From the IMG/VR virus record IMGVR_UViG_2778261702_000016: DNA of 8,137 nucleotides. One strand, written 5' to 3'. Numbering within the stretch: position 1 is the first letter of the stretch; each line of letters starts with the position of its first letter. Under the pieces are notes generated by a model. The model ran no database searches, was not told the origin of the DNA, and saw only the letters and a program-made list of their open reading frames with translations. The position numbers and the translations under genes were made by a program. Positions 1-8,137 of the stretch are shown here, one piece after another. Origin of the DNA: a virus (taxonomy: Duplodnaviria; Heunggongvirae; Uroviricota; Caudoviricetes).

Positions 1-259
1 CCACTGTACATCTGGCCACCCTGATACCTTCGCGTAACAACTGGCGCCAGACTTTACGCACACCGTACACCTGATGATTTTCATCGTATACGCGCTGTAT
101 CTCTCTCTTCAGCCAGTCATCGCGCTGCGCACGGGCACTGCGTTTATCCGGATGATGTCGCTGTTGCTGACAGTGGTAATACGTTGACGGGGCAATATGC
201 AGTTCACTGCATACCGGTCCGACCCCGTACTGCTCACGCAGCTTATCCAGCAGCGGCAT
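1..259 (-). CDS. IS3-family transposase OrfB (catalytic part), 5' 86 codons only, runs off window edge; normally made as an OrfAB fusion by -1 frameshifting
   Basis: Minus-strand frame from ATG at 259..257 translates [36 protein letters not shown]... with no stop to position 2; A-rich slippery run (plus strand TTTTTT 262..267) overlaps the orfA stop. Confidence 0.85.
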   Translation of the reverse strand, partial: MPLLDKLREQYGVGPVCSELHIAPSTYYHCQQQRHHPDKRSARAQRDDWLKREIQRVYDENHQVYGVRKVWRQLLREGIRVARCTV

Positions 260-585
260 TATTTTTTCCAGAGGCGGTCGAACTCCGCCTTCGCAAAATA
301 AGCGGAAGCCTGGCGAAGGATATCGTTACTGCGGCGCAGTTCACGATTTTCACGTTCCAGCTCTTTCAGACGCTGACGTTCAGCGGTGGTGAGTCCACCA
401 TCACCGCCCCCGGTATCCCGCTCATGCTGACGAACCCACACACGCAGAGTCTCTGGTGTACAGCCAATCTTTGGGGCAATGGAACAAATTGCCGCCCATT
501 GTGAGTCATATTCGCCCTGACTTTCCAGAACCATACGGACTGCCCGTTGACGGACCTCGGGGGAAAAACGTGTATTTTTAGTCAT
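259..585 (-). CDS. IS3-family transposase OrfA (helix-turn-helix DNA-binding part), IS629-like
   Basis: 108-aa [29 protein letters not shown]...[30 protein letters not shown] with leucine-zipper-like C-terminus typical of IS3 OrfA; start 55 bp inside the IS left end. Confidence 0.9.
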
Positions 586-639
586 CCTGTTTACCTCTTT
601 CTCAGGGAGTTTAGTCTCCAGGATTCCCGGGGCGGTTCA

Positions 640-1172
640 ATCTGCTGGCCGGAACTAATGAATTTATTGGTGAAGGTGACGCATACATTCCGCCTCATAC
701 AGGTCTGCCAGCAAACAGTACCGATATTGCACCGCCAGATATTCCGGCTGGCTTCGTGGCTGTTTTCAACAGTAATGAGGCATCGTGGCATCTCGTTGAA
801 GATCATCGGGGTAAAACGGTTTATGACGTGGCTTCCGGCGACGCGTTATTTATTTCTGAACTCGGTCCGTTACCGGAAAATGTTACCTGGTTGTCGCCGG
901 ATGGAGAGTGTCAGAAGTGGAACGGCACATCCTGGGCGAAAGATGCAGAAGCAGAAAAACTGTTTCGGGTACGGGAGGCAGAAGAAACAAAAAACAGCCT
1001 GATGCAGGTAGCCAGTGAGCATATTGCGCCACTTCAGGATGCCGTAGATTTGGATATTGCGACGGAGGAAGAGGCATCGTTACTGGCTGCATGGAAGACA
1101 TATCGGGTATTGTTGAATCGTGTTGATACAACAGTAGCAGCGGATGTTGAGTGGCCAGTCGCCCCACAATAA
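640..1172 (+). pseudogene. tfa: Tail fiber assembly protein (Tfa / P2 gpG family), 5'-truncated by the IS insertion at 639/640
   Basis: Frame open from 642 ([43 protein letters not shown]...[30 protein letters not shown], stop 1170..1172) with no ATG; the track start at 756 is a GTG. About 15 N-terminal codons are missing, replaced by the IS end. Confidence 0.85.
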
Positions 1173-1178
1173 AAAGAA

Positions 1179-1208
1179 AAAGCCATCGACAGAAATATCG
1201 ATGGCTTT
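1179..1208 (-). terminator. Intrinsic terminator for the acetyltransferase gene (possibly bidirectional, also behind tfa)
   Basis: Perfect 11-bp inverted repeat AAAGCCATCGA / TCGATGGCTTT (1179..1189 and 1198..1208) with 8-nt loop; on the minus strand it is followed by TTCTTTTTATT; sits between convergent stops at 1172 and 1216. Confidence 0.65.
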
Positions 1209-1215
1209 ATGTACT

Positions 1216-1788
1216 CTATTTATACAATACAACACCACTCTTTTTAGTTATATATGTGCAGTTTGATGGTATATCTTTATTTATAAAAGACATTGCACCT
1301 ATTTTTACATTATCCCCAATTTTACGTGATAATCCAATGATGCAACAATTAGCTCCGATATCAACGTTACTACCAATTTTTACTCTTGAACTAGGCATAT
1401 CACCATCTATCTGTCCAATGGTAGTATTCTGTCGTAATACCAGATTTTCACCCGCATCAACAGCAAAATGAACAACAATTCCAGCATGATGGGGAATTGT
1501 CAACCCTTTTCCAATATTTGCGCCCAATCCTATTTCACAACCAAACTTGTTAATTATTTTACTGTTTAACTTTTTGGCTGCTTTCTTATGTAATTTATTA
1601 CCATTAATATACATTTCGTTAGCCAACCGCCACCAGAAAAGGAAATTCCGGTTACGCTGCTTTTTCTCTCTTAAAAGCCTCCAGATATCCATACGTTTCC
1701 GCCGAATTACTTCATGTTTCCAGAAGTTTTTTAAATTAGTAGAGTTTCCAAATAAAACAAAGTGAATTGCCATTAAGTAAGATAGCAC
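1216..1788 (-). CDS. Hexapeptide-repeat (left-handed beta-helix) acetyltransferase, CysE/WcaB serine-acetyltransferase-like; probable polysaccharide O-acetyltransferase carried as phage cargo
   Basis: Motifs GCEIGLGANIGKGLTIPHHAGIVVHFAVDAGENLVLRQNTTIGQ...VKIGSNVDIGANCCIIG...IGDNVKIGAMSFINKDIPSN match the SAT/WcaB hexapeptide core. Start set at GTG 1788 (AAGGAG 6 nt upstream); longest ORF would start at ATG 1821. Stop TAG 1216..1218. Visibly AT-rich versus neighbours. Confidence 0.8.
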   Translation of the reverse strand: MLSYLMAIHFVLFGNSTNLKNFWKHEVIRRKRMDIWRLLREKKQRNRNFLFWWRLANEMYINGNKLHKKAAKKLNSKIINKFGCEIGLGANIGKGLTIPHHAGIVVHFAVDAGENLVLRQNTTIGQIDGDMPSSRVKIGSNVDIGANCCIIGLSRKIGDNVKIGAMSFINKDIPSNCTYITKKSGVVLYK

Positions 1789-1839
1789 GATAATCTCCTT
1801 AATTATTATTTCAGACCACACATGTTATAAGGTTAAGAG

Positions 1840-1868
1840 ATTATAAAATCCTGTTATTTGTTATTCAA
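1840..1868 (-). promoter_or_regulatory. Near-consensus sigma70 promoter driving the acetyltransferase gene
   Basis: Minus strand TTGAAT (1868..1863), 17-bp spacer, TATAAT (1845..1840); predicted transcript start about 1833, leaving a roughly 45-nt leader to the GTG at 1788. Confidence 0.55.
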
Positions 1869-1944
1869 AAACAATTTTCTGAGAAGGACATACAACAGCA
1901 AGTCGCCAGTCACCTTCATCAGGAAATTGGCGACATACGTTAAA

Positions 1945-2439
1945 TCAGAGCAGCCCCTTAACTGAGCTGGCCGCGCTATTAAGGGATGATGTCACCTTAT
2001 CTTTGAAGCCGGACAGCATATCGCTGAACGATGAGGATTGCAGGCGCTCCCGCAAATCCTCATCACAGCGTTCAAGAGTCAGTGAAAATTCTATCTTTTT
2101 CGCCTTACCGTAGCGATCAAACTCGGAGCGGGTCGTATTCGTTCCGGTCAGGACATACATGCCGTAAATCTGCCCGACGCCATCAATCAAAGGCCAAGGA
2201 CGTCCTGTATATGCCTGCGTGGTCAACAACGACAGCGACACTTCGCCACCAGTAATCTCAGGATAAAGAACACCAGAAAGAACGATGCGATCATCACCTG
2301 CACCGATATACTGCCAGCTTGCTGAACGGTTAACGCGTTCATTTTTCACATGTCGCCAGCTTTTGTTTTGCTGTAACTGCTGATGCGGCAACGTGCGCAG
2401 CTCAAAAACAAACATGCCGTAGATCATCATCATGGCCAT
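1945..2439 (-). CDS. Phage tail protein U (P2 gpU family)
   Basis: MAMMMIYGMFVFELRTLPHQQLQ...WQYIGAGDDRIVLSGVLYPEITGG...PWPLIDGVGQIYGMYVL...KIEFSLTLERCDE matches the gpU family pattern. AGGAG is spaced better for the second ATG (2433) than the first (2439). Confidence 0.85.
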   Translation of the reverse strand: MAMMMIYGMFVFELRTLPHQQLQQNKSWRHVKNERVNRSASWQYIGAGDDRIVLSGVLYPEITGGEVSLSLLTTQAYTGRPWPLIDGVGQIYGMYVLTGTNTTRSEFDRYGKAKKIEFSLTLERCDEDLRERLQSSSFSDMLSGFKDKVTSSLNSAASSVKGLL

Positions 2440-2445
2440 GACTCC

Positions 2446-3282
2446 TCAATCTTTATCGTAAAAACTGCCACGCCTGGCACGGGCGCGCCGTTCCATTTCT
2501 GCCCTGACCATTTCGCCGACCAGTTTCGCCAGTTCGCGGGGATTCTGCGTAACAACGTTATGCAGATGAACATGAATTTCACCGCCAAATCCGGAGGCAA
2601 CAGGCTCCCGGTTACGGGAAGTTGCAGGAACTGATGCCACTGGCGATCGTATGGCCTCCACCACCGGGCGGGAGCTGGCCGCAACAACAGGGACCAGCGC
2701 CGGAGGCAGCGGAGCCGGGACCACGGGTGTGATATTAATTGCGGGGGCAGGCTTACTGACCTGCGCAATCTTCCGCTCCTGCCACTCCCCACGAACAGCA
2801 AGTGCGCGGGGCAGGTTCTTAAAGACAATATCGCCGGGGCCAATGCGTTTTTTTGTCTCATCAACCAGCTTACCTGTGTTATCAGCAATTTTGCTGAGTC
2901 TGCGTAGCGTGCCGGTATTGCTGTCTGTGAGAGGTTTGTTGTCTTTGGGTTTATCATCTCCGGTGCCATTGCTATTTCCCGCAGACTTCGGCGGATTGAT
3001 TTTCGCAATGTCTCCCTGAAACAGAGCAACCTTGTCCTGAAGAATGGCCGCACGTTGTGCGTCTTCGATTTTCTTGCGCGCCCTTTCCGCTTCATCCGGA
3101 AGCACACCGAGTTTTTCAAGTATCCACGCCAGCGTATCCAGCAACATTTTTGCAGGCGTCAGAACAAGCTGTAACGCACCACCAAGAACGTTACCGAATA
3201 CCTCGCCAGCACTGGTACATTTATCCAGCGTTTCCTTGCTGGACTCCATCGGTGACAGCAGCGATTTAAACCAGTTAAACAC
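2446..3282 (-). CDS. Tail tape measure protein, C-terminal segment (second half of a frame-disrupted gene)
   Basis: Frame open from 3306 to stop at 2446; track start is a GTG at 3282. Sequence FNWFKSLLSPMESSKETL...REPVASGFGGEIHVHLHNVV... continues the upstream tape-measure ORF in a different frame; stop lies 6 nt before the gpU ribosome-binding site. Confidence 0.7.
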   Translation of the reverse strand: MFNWFKSLLSPMESSKETLDKCTSAGEVFGNVLGGALQLVLTPAKMLLDTLAWILEKLGVLPDEAERARKKIEDAQRAAILQDKVALFQGDIAKINPPKSAGNSNGTGDDKPKDNKPLTDSNTGTLRRLSKIADNTGKLVDETKKRIGPGDIVFKNLPRALAVRGEWQERKIAQVSKPAPAINITPVVPAPLPPALVPVVAASSRPVVEAIRSPVASVPATSRNREPVASGFGGEIHVHLHNVVTQNPRELAKLVGEMVRAEMERRARARRGSFYDKD

Positions 3283-5258
3283 CTGGCTGAACCGCTTCCG
3301 ATTACGTCAAAAACAGGGCCAAACCGTTCAAAGGTGTCGCGCAACGGGGTCAGCCTTTCCATAATCCCGCTGAACACCCCGGCAAAGAAAGCCCTGATAG
3401 GATCCCAGTATTTCCAGATAAGAACGGCAGCTCCGGCAAGCGCAGCCACGATAAGACCAACCGGACTGAACAACGCCCCGATAACGCCTCCCAGTAAAGA
3501 AACGGAACCCGTCACCATTCCCCATAGCGCAGGTAACACCCTGACGACATTCATTGACCGGGTAAGAATGTCAAAACCAAGACGCAGGGTGGCCAGCTTC
3601 CCGTAAAGCACCCCAATAACCAGCGACAACGAGCCAATCGTTGCAGTCATTGCCAGCAACGCACCGCCTGCTATCAGTAGCTGGCGCGTCAGTACCGGAT
3701 GGGCCTGCGCCAGCGAGGTGATTTTTTCAAGCACCCGCGTGAGCCACTGCGTGACAGAACGCAGCGGACCGTCAACCAGATCACTGATGCGAATACGAAG
3801 ACCTTCCCATGCGCTGTCGAGATTTTTCAGGTCCCCATCAAGATTATCAGCCATTACTTTTGCGACGCGATCGGCCTCTCCCCTTGCCCCCTGCAATTCT
3901 CTGGTCAGTTTTTGCAGCTCTCCTGAACCAGCCGCCGCAACAAGCGTCTGCAAACCAACGAACGCCTCTTCTCCGGCGATGTCCTTGAAGAAGGAGACCT
4001 GGTCCACCTGTCCGTATTTTTGTGTCGCCTTATAGAGATCAAGCAGCACATCCTCCATCGGGCGCATTTTGCCTCTGGCGTCAGCAACTGACACCCCCAG
4101 CTCTTTCAGTGCATCAGCCGCAGCTTTTGGCGGTGATGCAAGGCGGGACAGACTTGCGCGCATGGCCGTGCCAGCATCGCTTCCGCGAAGACCATTATTG
4201 GCAAGCATCCCGGCCATGGCCGCCGCTTCTTCAAGACTGATACCAAGTTTTGCGGCAACCGGACCGGTATACTTCATGGTTTCGCCCAGCGCGCGTAAAT
4301 CAGTATTGGTCCGGGTAAATGCTGCTGTCAGCGTATCGCCCACCCGGTCCATTTGATCGGCTGTCAGGTTGAACTGTGTGAGGATATTGGAGCCTATATC
4401 AGCCGTCTCGCCGAGTTCGACGCCACCTGCCAGCGCCATATTAAGAACACCGGGCAATGCGGCCTGAATGGCCTGCGGAGTAAAACCAGCCATTGCCAGA
4501 AAGCTCTGCCCACTGGCGGCATCACTCGCAGTAAACTGTGTTTCAGCAAGTTTTAACGCCTGCTCACGCAGCGCCTTAAACTGCGGGCTGTTTTTGTCGA
4601 TTCGCGTCAGTGCCTGAACGCGGGACATCTCTTTGCCGAACCCGATCGCAGGCTGCAAAAAACGCCCGGCAGCATAGCCGCCCGCCGCTGCCGCACCAAT
4701 TGCCAGCGCACCACCTGTTTTCAGTTTTCCCGCGGTTTCCTGCGCGTGCGAATACCGCTCACGCGCCTGCGTTACACGCGCAAGCGCCTGCCGTTCGCGT
4801 TCAAGCTGGTTGTTGTATTGTTCGGTGCGTCTGATGGCCTGCTGAATGGTGTTATCGCTGCCTGTCAGGGAAATGCCGTGGCGTTTCAGCTCTCCGCCAA
4901 GTTCCCTCATTTTCTGAATTTCCCGTGTGCGCGATTCATTCAGGCGTTCAAGCCGGGTGCTTAACTGCTGCATCAGCTTTTGTTGTTTTTCGCTGAGCAC
5001 TGTACCCGTGCGTTGTAACTGATTAAGGGCGTTAAGCTGGCGTCGTGCTTTCACGATGCCAGCATCCGCTTTACTGACAGCGTCGCGGGCGCGCTCAAAT
5101 GATCGCGCCTGACGCTCGAGATTTTTGATCGCCCCCTGCGTTCGCTGGATGGAGTCACCAAACTGCCCCATCAGGCGGCGTGCGTTTTCGGCAGGTCGGG
5201 TCAGCCTGTCAACGGCGCTGAAAGCGACCCGGATATCAAGAGTCTTCATTGTCTGCAT
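3159..5258 (-). CDS. Tail tape measure protein (P2 gpT-like), N-terminal segment; reading frame lost near 3290
   Basis: Long alpha-helical Q/R/L/A-rich ORF with Gly/Ala-rich transmembrane-like stretches typical of tape measure proteins, placed between chaperone and gpU. Track start 5285 is GTG; first ATGs at 5258 and 5249 overlap the E' stop. The last ~44 codons before the stop at 3159 look out-of-frame (SARCLTGLNRCCHRWSPARKRW...). Confidence 0.8.
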   Translation of the reverse strand: MQTMKTLDIRVAFSAVDRLTRPAENARRLMGQFGDSIQRTQGAIKNLERQARSFERARDAVSKADAGIVKARRQLNALNQLQRTGTVLSEKQQKLMQQLSTRLERLNESRTREIQKMRELGGELKRHGISLTGSDNTIQQAIRRTEQYNNQLERERQALARVTQARERYSHAQETAGKLKTGGALAIGAAAAGGYAAGRFLQPAIGFGKEMSRVQALTRIDKNSPQFKALREQALKLAETQFTASDAASGQSFLAMAGFTPQAIQAALPGVLNMALAGGVELGETADIGSNILTQFNLTADQMDRVGDTLTAAFTRTNTDLRALGETMKYTGPVAAKLGISLEEAAAMAGMLANNGLRGSDAGTAMRASLSRLASPPKAAADALKELGVSVADARGKMRPMEDVLLDLYKATQKYGQVDQVSFFKDIAGEEAFVGLQTLVAAAGSGELQKLTRELQGARGEADRVAKVMADNLDGDLKNLDSAWEGLRIRISDLVDGPLRSVTQWLTRVLEKITSLAQAHPVLTRQLLIAGGALLAMTATIGSLSLVIGVLYGKLATLRLGFDILTRSMNVVRVLPALWGMVTGSVSLLGGVIGALFSPVGLIVAALAGAAVLIWKYWDPIRAFFAGVFSGIMERLTPLRDTFERFGPVFDVIGSGSARCLTGLNRCCHRWSPARKRWINVPVLARYSVTFLVVRYSLF

Positions 5259-5765
5259 TCCCGCTGCGAAGTGCCGCCCGCTCACGCCAGCTAACCACTT
5301 CGCCGGGCGTCATCATGAAGATTTCGGCGGGCGACCAGTTAAAAATAACGGCAATATCTGCCACAAAGTCTTCTATGTGCTCAAAGCACACAACCGTGAT
5401 CAGGCTTCCGTCGCCTGTTCGTTCTTCCCGCCAGAGTCCGCACCGCTCAAAAAATTTACGGCAACCACACATAACTGAATAAAGTCACGGGATGCCATTT
5501 TTTTGATCGTCACTTCATCCAGTCGCGGTGATGTCACGCGTGACAGCAGCGTAAACATGGATTCCGCTTTCAGATTCAGCACATCAGACAGCGACAAATC
5601 TCGCAGAGATCCAGCCTGCTCAATAGCCCCGGTGATCTCCACATACGTGATTTTTTCGCCGCCTCGCTCAATTGGTTGGGTAAGTTTTACACCACGCTCA
5701 CTGGTTTCTTTCACAGTGTCAGTAACTACCGTGTTTTCGGTATCGATGTTTTTCGTCTCTTTCAT
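5236..5765 (-). CDS. Tail assembly chaperone E+E' (product of programmed -1 ribosomal frameshift)
   Basis: The -1 frame downstream of the slippery site reads FFERCGLWREERTGDGSLITVVCFEHIEDFVADIAVIFNWSPAEIFMMTPGEVVSWRERAALRSGNADNEDS to a stop at 5236..5238, giving the P2 E/E' arrangement immediately upstream of the tape measure gene. Confidence 0.65.
5400..5765 (-). CDS. Phage tail assembly chaperone (P2 gpE family)
   Basis: 121-aa ORF MKETKNIDTENTVVTDTVKETSERGVKLTQPIERGGEKITYVEITGA...; AAAGGAG ribosome-binding site (plus 5774..5780) 8 nt upstream of ATG 5765; small acidic protein between tube and tape measure genes. Confidence 0.85.
   Translation of the reverse strand: MKETKNIDTENTVVTDTVKETSERGVKLTQPIERGGEKITYVEITGAIEQAGSLRDLSLSDVLNLKAESMFTLLSRVTSPRLDEVTIKKMASRDFIQLCVVAVNFLSGADSGGKNEQATEA
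5448..5454 (-). promoter_or_regulatory. Slippery heptamer T_TTT_TTG for programmed -1 frameshifting E to E+E'
   Basis: Minus strand GTA AAT TTT TTG AGC in the E frame (VNFLS); the heptanucleotide TTTTTTG is the plus-strand CAAAAAA at 5448..5454. Confidence 0.6.
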
Positions 5766-7516: not shown

Positions 7517-7673
7517 AGCTTCAGCCCCTTGTATCCGTTAAATGATTCGGCAACAATCATCACCCACCACGCGCGTAATCTCACCCCTGCGCCGTTCTCC
7601 CGCCACGGCGACAACAAAAAGCAGTAACCCCCTCCGCACGCACATGCGACCATGCCGCACAGGGAGGGAACAG

Positions 7674-7940
7674 ATGACCGACACCACCATGCAATTGCTC
7701 AGTCAGGGCACAGACCACGTGAAAGTGCCGGATTTTGATATTCTCGCGGAGGGTAAAACGCTGTCAGGCGTGGCAGAGCGCCTGATGAGCCTGTCACTGA
7801 CCGACAACCGGGGATTTGAGGCGGACCAGCTCACCATCACGCTGGATGATGCAGATGGTCAGTTGCAGCTACCGCCACGGGGCGCGCGCCTGACGGTTCT
7901 CATTGGCTGGAAAGGAGAACCGCTGACAGAAAAAGGCACT
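7674..7940 (+). pseudogene. Phage late control gene D (gpD family tail protein), 3'-truncated after codon 89
   Basis: ATG 7674 preceded by GGGAGGG; MTDTTMQLLSQGTDHVKVPDFDILAEGKTLSGVAERLMSLSLTDNRGFEADQLTITLDDADGQLQLPPRGARLTVLIGWKGEPLTEKGT matches the gpD N-terminus (SLTDNRGFEAD.LTITLDD motif), then homology stops at 7941 and the frame terminates within 20 codons. Confidence 0.8.
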
Positions 7941-8010
7941 TGTAGATTCAATCTGTCAATGCAACACCCCTTTCAATTATCTCTTTCGGTGTTTTGAACT
8001 TCAGTGTCTT
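7941..8010 (+). mobile_element. Terminal fragment of an IS30-family element (inverted-repeat end), truncated by the IS3-family insertion at 8011
   Basis: 7941..7966 TGTAGATTCAATCTGTCAATGCAACA matches 23 of 26 positions of the IS30 terminal inverted repeat as I recall it (TGTAGATTCAATTGGTCAACGCAACA); starts exactly where gpD homology ends. Confidence 0.5.
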
Positions 8011-8137
8011 TGAACCGCCCCGGAAATCCTGGAGACTAAACTCCCTGAGAAAGAGGTAAACAGGATGACTAAAAATACTCGTTTTTCCCCCGAAGTCCGT
8101 CAGCGGGCGATTCGTATGGTTCTGGAAAGTCAGGATG
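8011..8137 (+). mobile_element. Second IS3-family insertion sequence (IS629-group, distinct variant), left end; runs off window
   Basis: Starts TGAACCGCCCCGGAAATCCTGGAGACTAAACTCCCTGAGAAAGAGGTAAACAGG; 118 of 127 aligned bases match the reverse complement of 513..639. Confidence 0.9.
8065..8137 (+). CDS. IS3-family transposase OrfA, first 24 codons (partial at window edge)
   Basis: ATG at 8065 after GAGG; translates [24 protein letters not shown], paralogous to the OrfA at 585..259 (V to I at residue 16). Confidence 0.85.
   Translation, partial: MTKNTRFSPEVRQRAIRMVLESQD

Follow-up and report, generated by a model that had tools for sequence, protein, structure and literature searches.

What does a single gene of low G+C do between two tail genes of a broken prophage, and on what does its product act? 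The question is raised by a stretch of 8,137 nucleotides of viral DNA (IMG/VR record IMGVR_UViG_2778261702_000016; the window, hereafter, is this whole stretch at its full length), which displays 100% identity to Escherichia coli O157:H7 and corresponds to prophage Sp13 of strain Sakai. An earlier note, made from the letters alone, had singled out positions 1173-1944 as a cassette holding a low-G+C gene of about 570 bp between the tail fibre assembly gene tfa and the tail gene gpU. Every element was found here where that note had placed it, and the gene measures 573 bp with a G+C of 34.0%. We also observed a pattern absent from the note: the gene family is recurrently and tightly paired with tail fibre assembly genes across unrelated phages. 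As argued below, the product may be a surface-glycan acetyltransferase used for lysogenic conversion.

The segment 1173-1944 is the exact block between the stop codon of tfa (plus strand) and that of gpU (minus strand), and it holds one gene, on the minus strand. The elements on which the argument depends are the following:

639-1172, plus strand: tfa, tail fibre assembly gene of the TfaQ/TfaR type (Caudo_TAP, E 3e-40; homology to intact tfa from 639)
1179-1208, both strands: bidirectional intrinsic terminator, common to the convergent tfa and acetyltransferase genes (13 pairs including wobble, U run)
1216-1788, minus strand: acetyltransferase open reading frame (ORF) ECs_2638 of Sp13 (573 bp including the stop codon, 190 aa, GTG start at 1788-1786)
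1795-1800, minus strand: ribosome-binding site AAGGAG, six nt 5' of the GTG start
1840-1868, minus strand: sigma-70-type promoter match TTGAAT-17-TATAAT (10/12 consensus), 52 nt 5' of the start codon
1902-1934, minus strand: extended hairpin GTCGCCA...TGGCGAC, just 3' of the gpU stop and 5' of the cassette promoter
1945-2439, minus strand: gpU tail gene, right border of the cargo site (Phage_P2_GpU, E 2e-38)

The cassette, its junction and its tail fibre partner

The composition of the ORF differs from that of its surroundings, the G+C being 49.6% in tfa, 49.9% in gpU and 54.3% in the rest of the prophage; its GC3 is 28.8% versus 55.8% in gpU, and the lowest G+C among the other 573-bp windows of the sequence is 48.9%. 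The AAGGAG site described before is present, and it is kept in the P2-like copies and in locus L006 and missing in the P1-like copy, which starts with ATG. The promoter hexamers (TTGAAT, 1868-1863; TATAAT, 1845-1840) are also there and remain unchanged in the P2-like copies (O26, O104:H4, 55989 and an echidna isolate), in which only spacer bases differ; the promoter is degraded in L006 and replaced in the P1-like JL22. The label of near-consensus promoter is therefore correct as to the bases, but the match alone is statistically unexceptional, since four promoter-like sites were found in this AT-rich stretch versus 3.2 expected from shuffles, and what speaks for the promoter is its position plus the conservation of its hexamers. 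The terminator is strong (-18.1 kcal/mol, z = -6.6) and kept in all backgrounds, although its stem comprises 13 pairs rather than the 11 bp first counted. At the other border, the 1902-1934 hairpin is non-canonical and stable (-22 kcal/mol, z = -4.6) with a U-rich tail, and represents a candidate terminator of the FI-U tail operon that may insulate the cassette; the idea that it is too weak to terminate was discarded upon folding. The gene is co-oriented with the FI-U operon, downstream of gpU, and convergent on tfa. It is likely to be the autonomous unit envisaged before, which would be expressed in the lysogen, but the co-orientation makes late read-through from the tail operon possible as well. 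No tandem or phase-variable repeats were found in 1150-1960, and an Rfam scan gave nothing within the cassette.

A comparison with related prophages, which the earlier note had suggested, disclosed three states of the tfa/gpU junction. It can be empty, with a 41-bp gap containing a bidirectional terminator (ECN24); it can carry an invertible alternative fibre segment plus an invertase (UTI89, EC958, P88 and phiSM); or it can carry the acetyltransferase cassette (O157, O26, O104:H4, 55989 and the echidna isolate). Homology among the three states starts at the gpU stop codon, and the empty and invertase-type junctions bear other, canonical hairpins at the gpU-proximal position. The atypical composition, the polymorphism of the site and the presence of its own terminator show that the cassette is a variable accessory cargo, or "moron". 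It was found in 530 of 5426 complete E. coli genomes (about 10%), this type of gpU being present in 1404 of the 5426, and its carriers include the main enterohaemorrhagic E. coli (EHEC) serogroups and P1-like phage-plasmids. The gene is under purifying selection, with ratios of nonsynonymous to synonymous substitution (dN/dS) of about 0.1 (0.07-0.14 between copies with dS up to 0.38), and all backgrounds examined had an intact ORF. Conservation extends through the family to 35% identity, the catalytic and motif residues being invariant. A 50%-identical homolog was also seen in an IS66-rich region of EAF-type virulence plasmids of enteropathogenic E. coli (loci L014-L017, 6001-6594), just 3' of a type IV pilus operon that resembles bfp (ATPase, prepilin peptidase, transglycosylase).

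The linkage to tail fibre genes was studied in the neighbourhoods of about 150 of the approximately 600 homolog loci detected. In E. coli, the cassette is joined to a tfa of the TfaQ/TfaR type in 529 of the 530 genomes, and this type of tfa usually occurs without the cassette. P1-like phages and phage-plasmids (JL22, for example) also carry a copy of about 90% nucleotide identity, within their invertible tail-fibre segment, and an unrelated myovirus prophage has one at its end. The block common to the P2-like, P1-like and third-phage copies takes in the final 620-1080 bp of the fibre gene together with tfa and the acetyltransferase gene, and its right-hand boundary differs, being the start codon in JL22 and a point just past the -35 box in the third phage. 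Across the family (members 35-100% identical), nearly every viral locus whose flank is long enough has a tfa that converges on the enzyme gene at a distance of 4-64 nt. Homologs of 35-71% identity stand by the tfa of P2-type, gp53-like and lambdoid Stf-type fibres, as well as in Citrobacter phage phiNP and Hafnia phage yong2, and a P22-type tailspike gene is near the family member of the L187 group. Beside the chromosomal non-phage homologs, no convergent tfa was found. The divergence of the enzyme and that of the neighbouring Tfa are correlated (Mantel rho 0.69, reached by 0 of 5000 permutations, host ancestry not being controlled), which suggests a long-linked pair. We rejected the existence of a special tfa sub-allele tied to the cassette, because tfa genes of about 91% identity occur without it in most E. 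coli and because the cassette-linked tfa of other phage backgrounds are equally divergent.

Other cargo was seen near tail fibre genes. In other prophages (H171-H173: E. coli E12, 4621 and AVS0542), two tfa genes flank a gene for a class I S-adenosylmethionine (SAM)-dependent methyltransferase, and a 903-bp gene for a macro-domain protein lies between the tail fibre gene and tfa in O157 strains with an intact Sp13 fibre region (L001 13511-14413 in PV15-279). This insert is missing from the O26, O104:H4, echidna-isolate, P1-like and other copies of the module. In phiNP (L195 643-1835), a hicA/hicB pair is directly upstream of the acetyltransferase homolog and co-oriented with it, forming a small cargo cluster by tfa.

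The enzyme and its relatives

The proposal that the product is a short hexapeptide enzyme of the serine acetyltransferase kind was borne out by its predicted fold and by its best solved matches. The AlphaFold (AF2) monomer model, built on an alignment of 41 family sequences, is a confident one (pLDDT, or predicted local distance difference test, 88.3; predicted template modelling score, pTM, 0.85) in which five N-terminal helices precede a beta-coil domain. The model predicts a basic helical N-domain (residues 1-83) and the left-handed beta-helix for which a structure prediction had been advised (84 to about 180), with short strands that keep a coil register from residue 84 on. The 50 PDB matches listed by Foldseek were all beta-helix serine acetyltransferases (probability 1.00, TM up to 0.73), and phmmer against the PDB yielded an E of 1e-12. 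Profile searches, also advised, gave CysE/WcaB/EpsC-like similarity but no membership. Many NCBIfam hexapeptide families matched weakly, the top ones being EpsC (76 bits versus a cut-off of 150), CysE (62 bits; 62.4 versus 210.65 for TIGR01172 and 36.6 versus 397 for PRK11132) and WcaB (56 bits; 55.8 versus 196 and 54.4 versus 194.65 for its two models), all of them below the curated cut-offs. In Pfam, Hexapep (E 2e-5, 24.4 bits) remained under its gathering score of 27, Hexapep_2 reached 17.7 bits, and SATase_N had no match in the product. The full-length match was to PHROG 2154, annotated as of unknown function (E 2.9e-87, 291.9 bits; residues 13-190 aligned to positions 3-181 of the 185-position profile).

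To compare the product with CysE, residues were mapped by alignment to the Y. pestis and N. gonorrhoeae enzymes, taking the roles of the residues from PMC9547175 and PMC13040420. The catalytic positions are kept (His158 is H100, Asp143 is E85 and Gln178 is Q120) and are invariant or nearly so in the family. On the other hand, of the residues that contact L-serine or L-cysteine in CysE (Asp92, Asp157, Arg192 and His193; PMC9547175, PMC13040420), three correspond to different ones in the product: Asp157 is P99, Arg192 is S134 and His193 is R135, the last two being in a loop whose length and sequence differ among family members. As to Asp92, no RDPA motif was seen by eye in the N-domain, a region lying outside the tool alignments. 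Formation of the CysK complex needs a C-terminal Ile on CysE (PMC13040420), and the product ends in SGVVLYK, without this Ile, the C-termini of the family being variable. The N-domain is about 60 residues shorter than that of CysE and strongly basic (isoelectric point 11.4, net charge about +16; family median +13), which is compatible with docking on an anionic membrane or on an LPS (lipopolysaccharide)-precursor surface. The family also has motifs of its own, FWWRLANE and RQNTTIG. On sequence grounds, the chemistry is predicted to be that of serine acetyltransferases, that is, acetyl-CoA-dependent O-acetylation with a His as the general base, and the contacts, the CysK tail and the curated scores would place the product outside CysE. 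Thus, it resembles CysE (E. coli 1T3D, N. gonorrhoeae 6WYE) in having a helical N-domain followed by a left-handed beta-helix and in its catalytic His, acid and Gln178 equivalent, but differs in its shorter basic N-domain, its replaced serine contacts, the lack of the CysK tail and its phage and LPS context. Annotation of the gene goes back to the first O157 genomes. Its RefSeq name is serine O-acetyltransferase, and it is uniformly mis-named as a cysteine-pathway enzyme.

By profile, the closest enzymes are WcaB and EpsC, which are likewise short serine-acetyltransferase-like hexapeptide enzymes of polysaccharide loci and presumably act on lipid-linked sugars at the cytoplasmic face. However, the product is far below their equivalog cut-offs and has its own motifs, and its family occurs in phages and in waa or O-antigen-type loci rather than in wca or eps ones.

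Those non-phage members that are found in LPS loci carry all the family-specific motifs, and give clues about the acceptor. In Leminorella grimontii the gene order is a GT4 glycosyltransferase, a WaaI/O-type galactosyltransferase, WaaY, WaaZ, a 190-aa homolog and a convergent RfaL/WaaL, and the waaI/O-type, waaY, waaZ and waaL assignments are all above curated cut-offs. By comparison with the waa operons of K-12 and Salmonella, we take this homolog to occupy the place of the enzyme that decorates the outer core last. In a Halomonas metagenome-assembled genome (L042 4001-5384), waaZ and a homolog form a two-gene islet with G+C of 0.44 and 0.34 versus 0.57, set between unrelated genes. WaaZ is a Kdo III transferase, and its pairing with the homolog in both Halomonas and Leminorella hints at Kdo III, or the region around it, as a possible acceptor. 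In Pseudomonas, the homolog starts 4 nt after a GT2 gene in a cluster of the O-antigen type that includes a UDP-sugar dehydrogenase and a GFO/IDH/MocA oxidoreductase. Among phage-borne members, those of Xenorhabdus prophages have a family-25 glycosyltransferase gene (Glyco_transf_25) 59 nt downstream of the homolog, and in locus L177 a YibB/HtrL equivalog is located between the homolog and tfa. GT25 and YibB are thus two independent co-cargo genes of the LPS-core type. Moreover, phages phiNP and phiSM adsorb to specific glucose residues of the LPS outer core (PMC6456863); phiNP carries a 44%-identical member in the same tfa-convergent arrangement, and phiSM belongs to the genus of the Sp13 prophage.

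The prophage around the cassette

The prophage belongs to the P88-like Xuanwuvirus genus of the Peduoviridae and is not P2 itself. In P2, the order is G, then fun(Z) on the opposite strand, and then FI to D, whereas the usual arrangement in Xuanwuvirus has the FI-FII-E-T-U block pointing towards the fibre operon, with gpD and FI divergent; the junction is, therefore, tfa/gpU and not G/FI. An O157-specific inversion of the FI-U tail block was considered and rejected, since unrelated E. coli lineages share this order with the isolated phages P88 and phiSM. These results qualify the earlier note, which had likened the position to the Z/fun site of P2. Like fun(Z), the cassette is a non-essential Peduoviridae cargo directly downstream of a tail fibre assembly gene, to which it is convergent, but its other flank is gpU rather than FI owing to the inverted tail block, the mechanism proposed for it is different, and Fun(Z) and the product share no sequence similarity (E 14).

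The prophage in the window is badly decayed, with tfa, the tape-measure gene and gpD broken and the cassette intact. The corresponding features are:

1-639 and 8011-8137: partial IS629/IS1203 (IS3 family) copies that bracket the prophage fragment
2446-5285, minus strand: tape-measure pseudogene, with a 1-nt deletion near 3290 versus intact copies that results in two overlapping ORFs
7542-7997, plus strand: gpD, truncated after about 130 codons (homology stops at 7941)

The left insertion sequence (IS) copy contains orfA (259-585, minus strand) and an Rfam ALIL frameshift pseudoknot (188-304, minus strand), and takes the place of the fibre gene and of the first 15 codons of tfa, which is thereby truncated at its 5' end. 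The tape-measure gene has, in addition, a 3-nt indel near 4546, and about 70 nt without assignment separate the end of the gpD homology from the right-hand IS copy. Loss of the whole prophage is tolerated, as shown by strain Xuzhou21 (PMC3338595, gene-loss table).

Three further observations concern this region and its equivalents. First, Rfam IS009, a candidate small RNA from a screen of E. coli intergenic regions, matched with 191 bits at 937-1135 (plus strand), wholly within the coding region of tfa, a match that may mean no more than that this Rfam family picks up the conserved 3' portion of TfaQ/TfaR-type genes. Second, plasmid-partition genes (stbA-like) are present just past the IS in Sakai Sp13 (L031 1-1106), which fits the published finding that about a quarter of P2-like phages have a partition system in the cos-proximal hotspot. 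Third, there is a second cargo site between gpD and ogr, whose occupant changes from prophage to prophage (YecA-family, DUF2971, PIN-domain and DUF3800; L001 21876-23015, L003 16748-17533, L004 16849-18351 and L005 16708-17877), which looks like a defence-type hotspot.

Role, alternatives and meaning

Taken together, the LPS-locus relatives, the co-cargo, the linkage to tfa and the receptors of phiNP and phiSM lead us to favour, with roughly even confidence, a surface-glycan acetyltransferase used for lysogenic conversion. Acetylation of surface polysaccharide, already put forward in the earlier note, is the best-supported role, with relatives in both LPS core and O-antigen loci. As for the LPS core in particular, we regard it as a possible acceptor, with somewhat less than even confidence.

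The following course of events can be proposed. The product would belong to the serine-acetyltransferase/WcaB/EpsC branch and act as an acetyl-CoA-dependent O-acetyltransferase, either soluble or peripheral to the membrane and probably a trimer, with the predicted His100/Glu85 pair acting as general base and with an acceptor other than L-serine. Most likely, this acceptor would be a sugar in a surface glycan still under construction at the inner membrane's cytoplasmic face. The LPS core oligosaccharide during its assembly on lipid A, ahead of MsbA flipping, is the best candidate, and an undecaprenyl-linked O-antigen or exopolysaccharide unit a less likely one. Expressed in the lysogen from its own promoter, possibly with some late read-through from the tail operon, the enzyme would decorate the LPS, the receptor of many P2-, P1- and Mu-type tail fibres. 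The outcome would be an altered cell surface, that is, a lysogenic conversion, with a lower adsorption either of related phages or, on debris, of the progeny of the phage itself. Since the gene is constantly convergent on tfa and has the terminator in common with it, the receptor-binding tip, its chaperone and the receptor-modifying enzyme may be exchanged by recombination between phage families as one unit.

That lysogeny can convert surface glycans is textbook knowledge, the enzymes being membrane Oac and Gtr in the case of O antigens and NeuO in that of the K1 capsule. NeuO, of prophage CUS-3, is a phage-borne soluble hexapeptide-repeat O-acetyltransferase that modifies the K1 capsule of the lysogen, and was the parallel first drawn. 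The parallel is valid for the lifestyle proposed for ECs_2638 and not beyond it: NeuO is of another subfamily (31 versus 161 bits; 30.7 versus a cut-off of 160.8 with the NeuD/NeuO-type model) and has a heptanucleotide phase-variation tract that the cassette lacks, and the cassette occurs in strains without sialic-acid capsules. By genome logic, the closest systems are Oac and GtrABC of P22-like and Shigella phages, conversion genes beside the tailspike gene that modify the phage's own receptor and limit superinfection; the L187 member, too, lies near a P22-type tailspike gene. Oac and GtrABC, however, are integral-membrane proteins acting on the O antigen in or beyond the membrane, whereas the product, in whose model no transmembrane segment is predicted, would use cytoplasmic acetyl-CoA, probably on the core.

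Several points weigh against the role that we favour. The searched literature contained no biochemical or genetic work on any family member. The distant homologs are often lone insertions without glycan genes (Citrobacter, Erwinia, Rahnella, Pantoea and Orbus), and the acceptor could differ because the LPS-locus relatives are only 42-48% identical. We know of no O-acetylation in the published core of E. coli O157 (R3 type). The occurrence in many serotypes argues against an O-unit acceptor and yet is no positive sign of a core one. The region 3' of the tail-fibre genes is a general cargo site, equivalents of which hold P2 fun(Z), a SAM methyltransferase or invertible segments, so that the position alone is no proof of a receptor-related role. 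Finally, the correlation with Tfa could reflect common host ancestry plus physical linkage, and the promoter match is, by itself, the unexceptional one described above.

Among the alternatives, the most probable, although rather unlikely, is that the enzyme O-acetylates another cytoplasmically assembled polymer, such as the O-antigen repeat unit, colanic acid, enterobacterial common antigen or capsule. The best NCBIfam likeness is to EpsC, of exopolysaccharide loci, and to WcaB, of colanic acid; the Pseudomonas homolog lies within an O-antigen-type cluster; and the cassette has the low G+C typical of O-antigen and polysaccharide clusters. Nevertheless, all WcaB and EpsC cut-offs failed, and an O-unit-specific acceptor is improbable because the cassette is carried by strains with many different O antigens (O157, O26, O111, O103 and O104). 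The two independent WaaZ associations, the position in the waa locus and the GT25 and YibB co-cargo point instead to the core.

We consider it unlikely that the gene serves in intracellular defence, counter-defence or detoxification by acetylating a small molecule, an antibiotic, a signalling nucleotide or a phage component. Such a function would fit the usual content of P2-family cargo sites, the cargo site being analogous to that of P2 fun(Z), which blocks T5, and it would also fit the HicAB or Abi protein neighbours seen in some phages and the occurrence as a single autonomous gene on phages, plasmids and islands; other hexapeptide enzymes, moreover, inactivate antibiotics. Against it, no family of the PADLOC-DB defence models matched at E up to 1, no partner gene is conserved, the gene is closely paired to tfa instead of to defence genes, and relatives are inside LPS operons.

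That the gene encodes a genuine serine O-acetyltransferase, an extra CysE isozyme boosting or deregulating cysteine synthesis in the lysogen, seems to us very unlikely. In its favour, CysE enzymes account for all the nearest solved structures and sequences, the catalytic His/acid pair has been retained, the RefSeq name agrees, and the literature adopts an untried "fitness factor" view (PMC9603915, PMC6456863). But the scores are far under the cut-offs (62 versus 211 and 37 versus 397), three serine/cysteine contacts are replaced, neither an RDPA motif (by eye), a SATase_N match nor a C-terminal Ile was observed, the N-domain is basic, unlike that of CysE, and the relatives are in LPS loci and not in sulfur-metabolism ones. 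As to a functionless passenger spread by its linkage to an often-recombining tail-fibre tip/tfa module, a left junction that is always tfa, the ample recombination homology offered by a fibre and tfa common to phage families and the loss of the whole prophage in Xuzhou21 could speak for it, but we give it hardly any credence in view of the dN/dS of 0.07-0.14, of an ORF that is intact in every examined background, this heavily decayed prophage included, and of a family kept to 35% identity with invariant catalytic and motif residues.

Previous work deals with the gene at the annotation level, describing its presence as of "reason unknown" (PMC9603915) or as related to "fitness" (PMC6456863); two papers on P2 hotspots mention neither this gene nor acetyltransferases, and the literature searched yielded no description of any soluble enzyme, similar to serine acetyltransferases and linked to tail-fibre genes, that acts on the LPS core. 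We put forward, as a tentative and rather doubtful extension of the role favoured above, that the family represents an unrecognised class of phage-borne cytoplasmic LPS-core O-acetyltransferases, co-inherited with the fibre tip and its chaperone as a portable module for binding and masking. Even if the acceptor were another one, the annotation of a large protein family, PHROG 2154, would be corrected. If the proposal is true, about a tenth of E. coli strains, EHEC O157, O26 and O111 and O104:H4 included, would have their core modified by a prophage, a change left out of present LPS structures and of models of phage host range. Acetylation of the core would affect the host range and superinfection of LPS-binding phages, which is relevant to phage therapy and typing, and might change the recognition of core epitopes by antibodies and innate receptors. 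The module would then be a concrete case of receptor-binding and receptor-masking genes travelling together.

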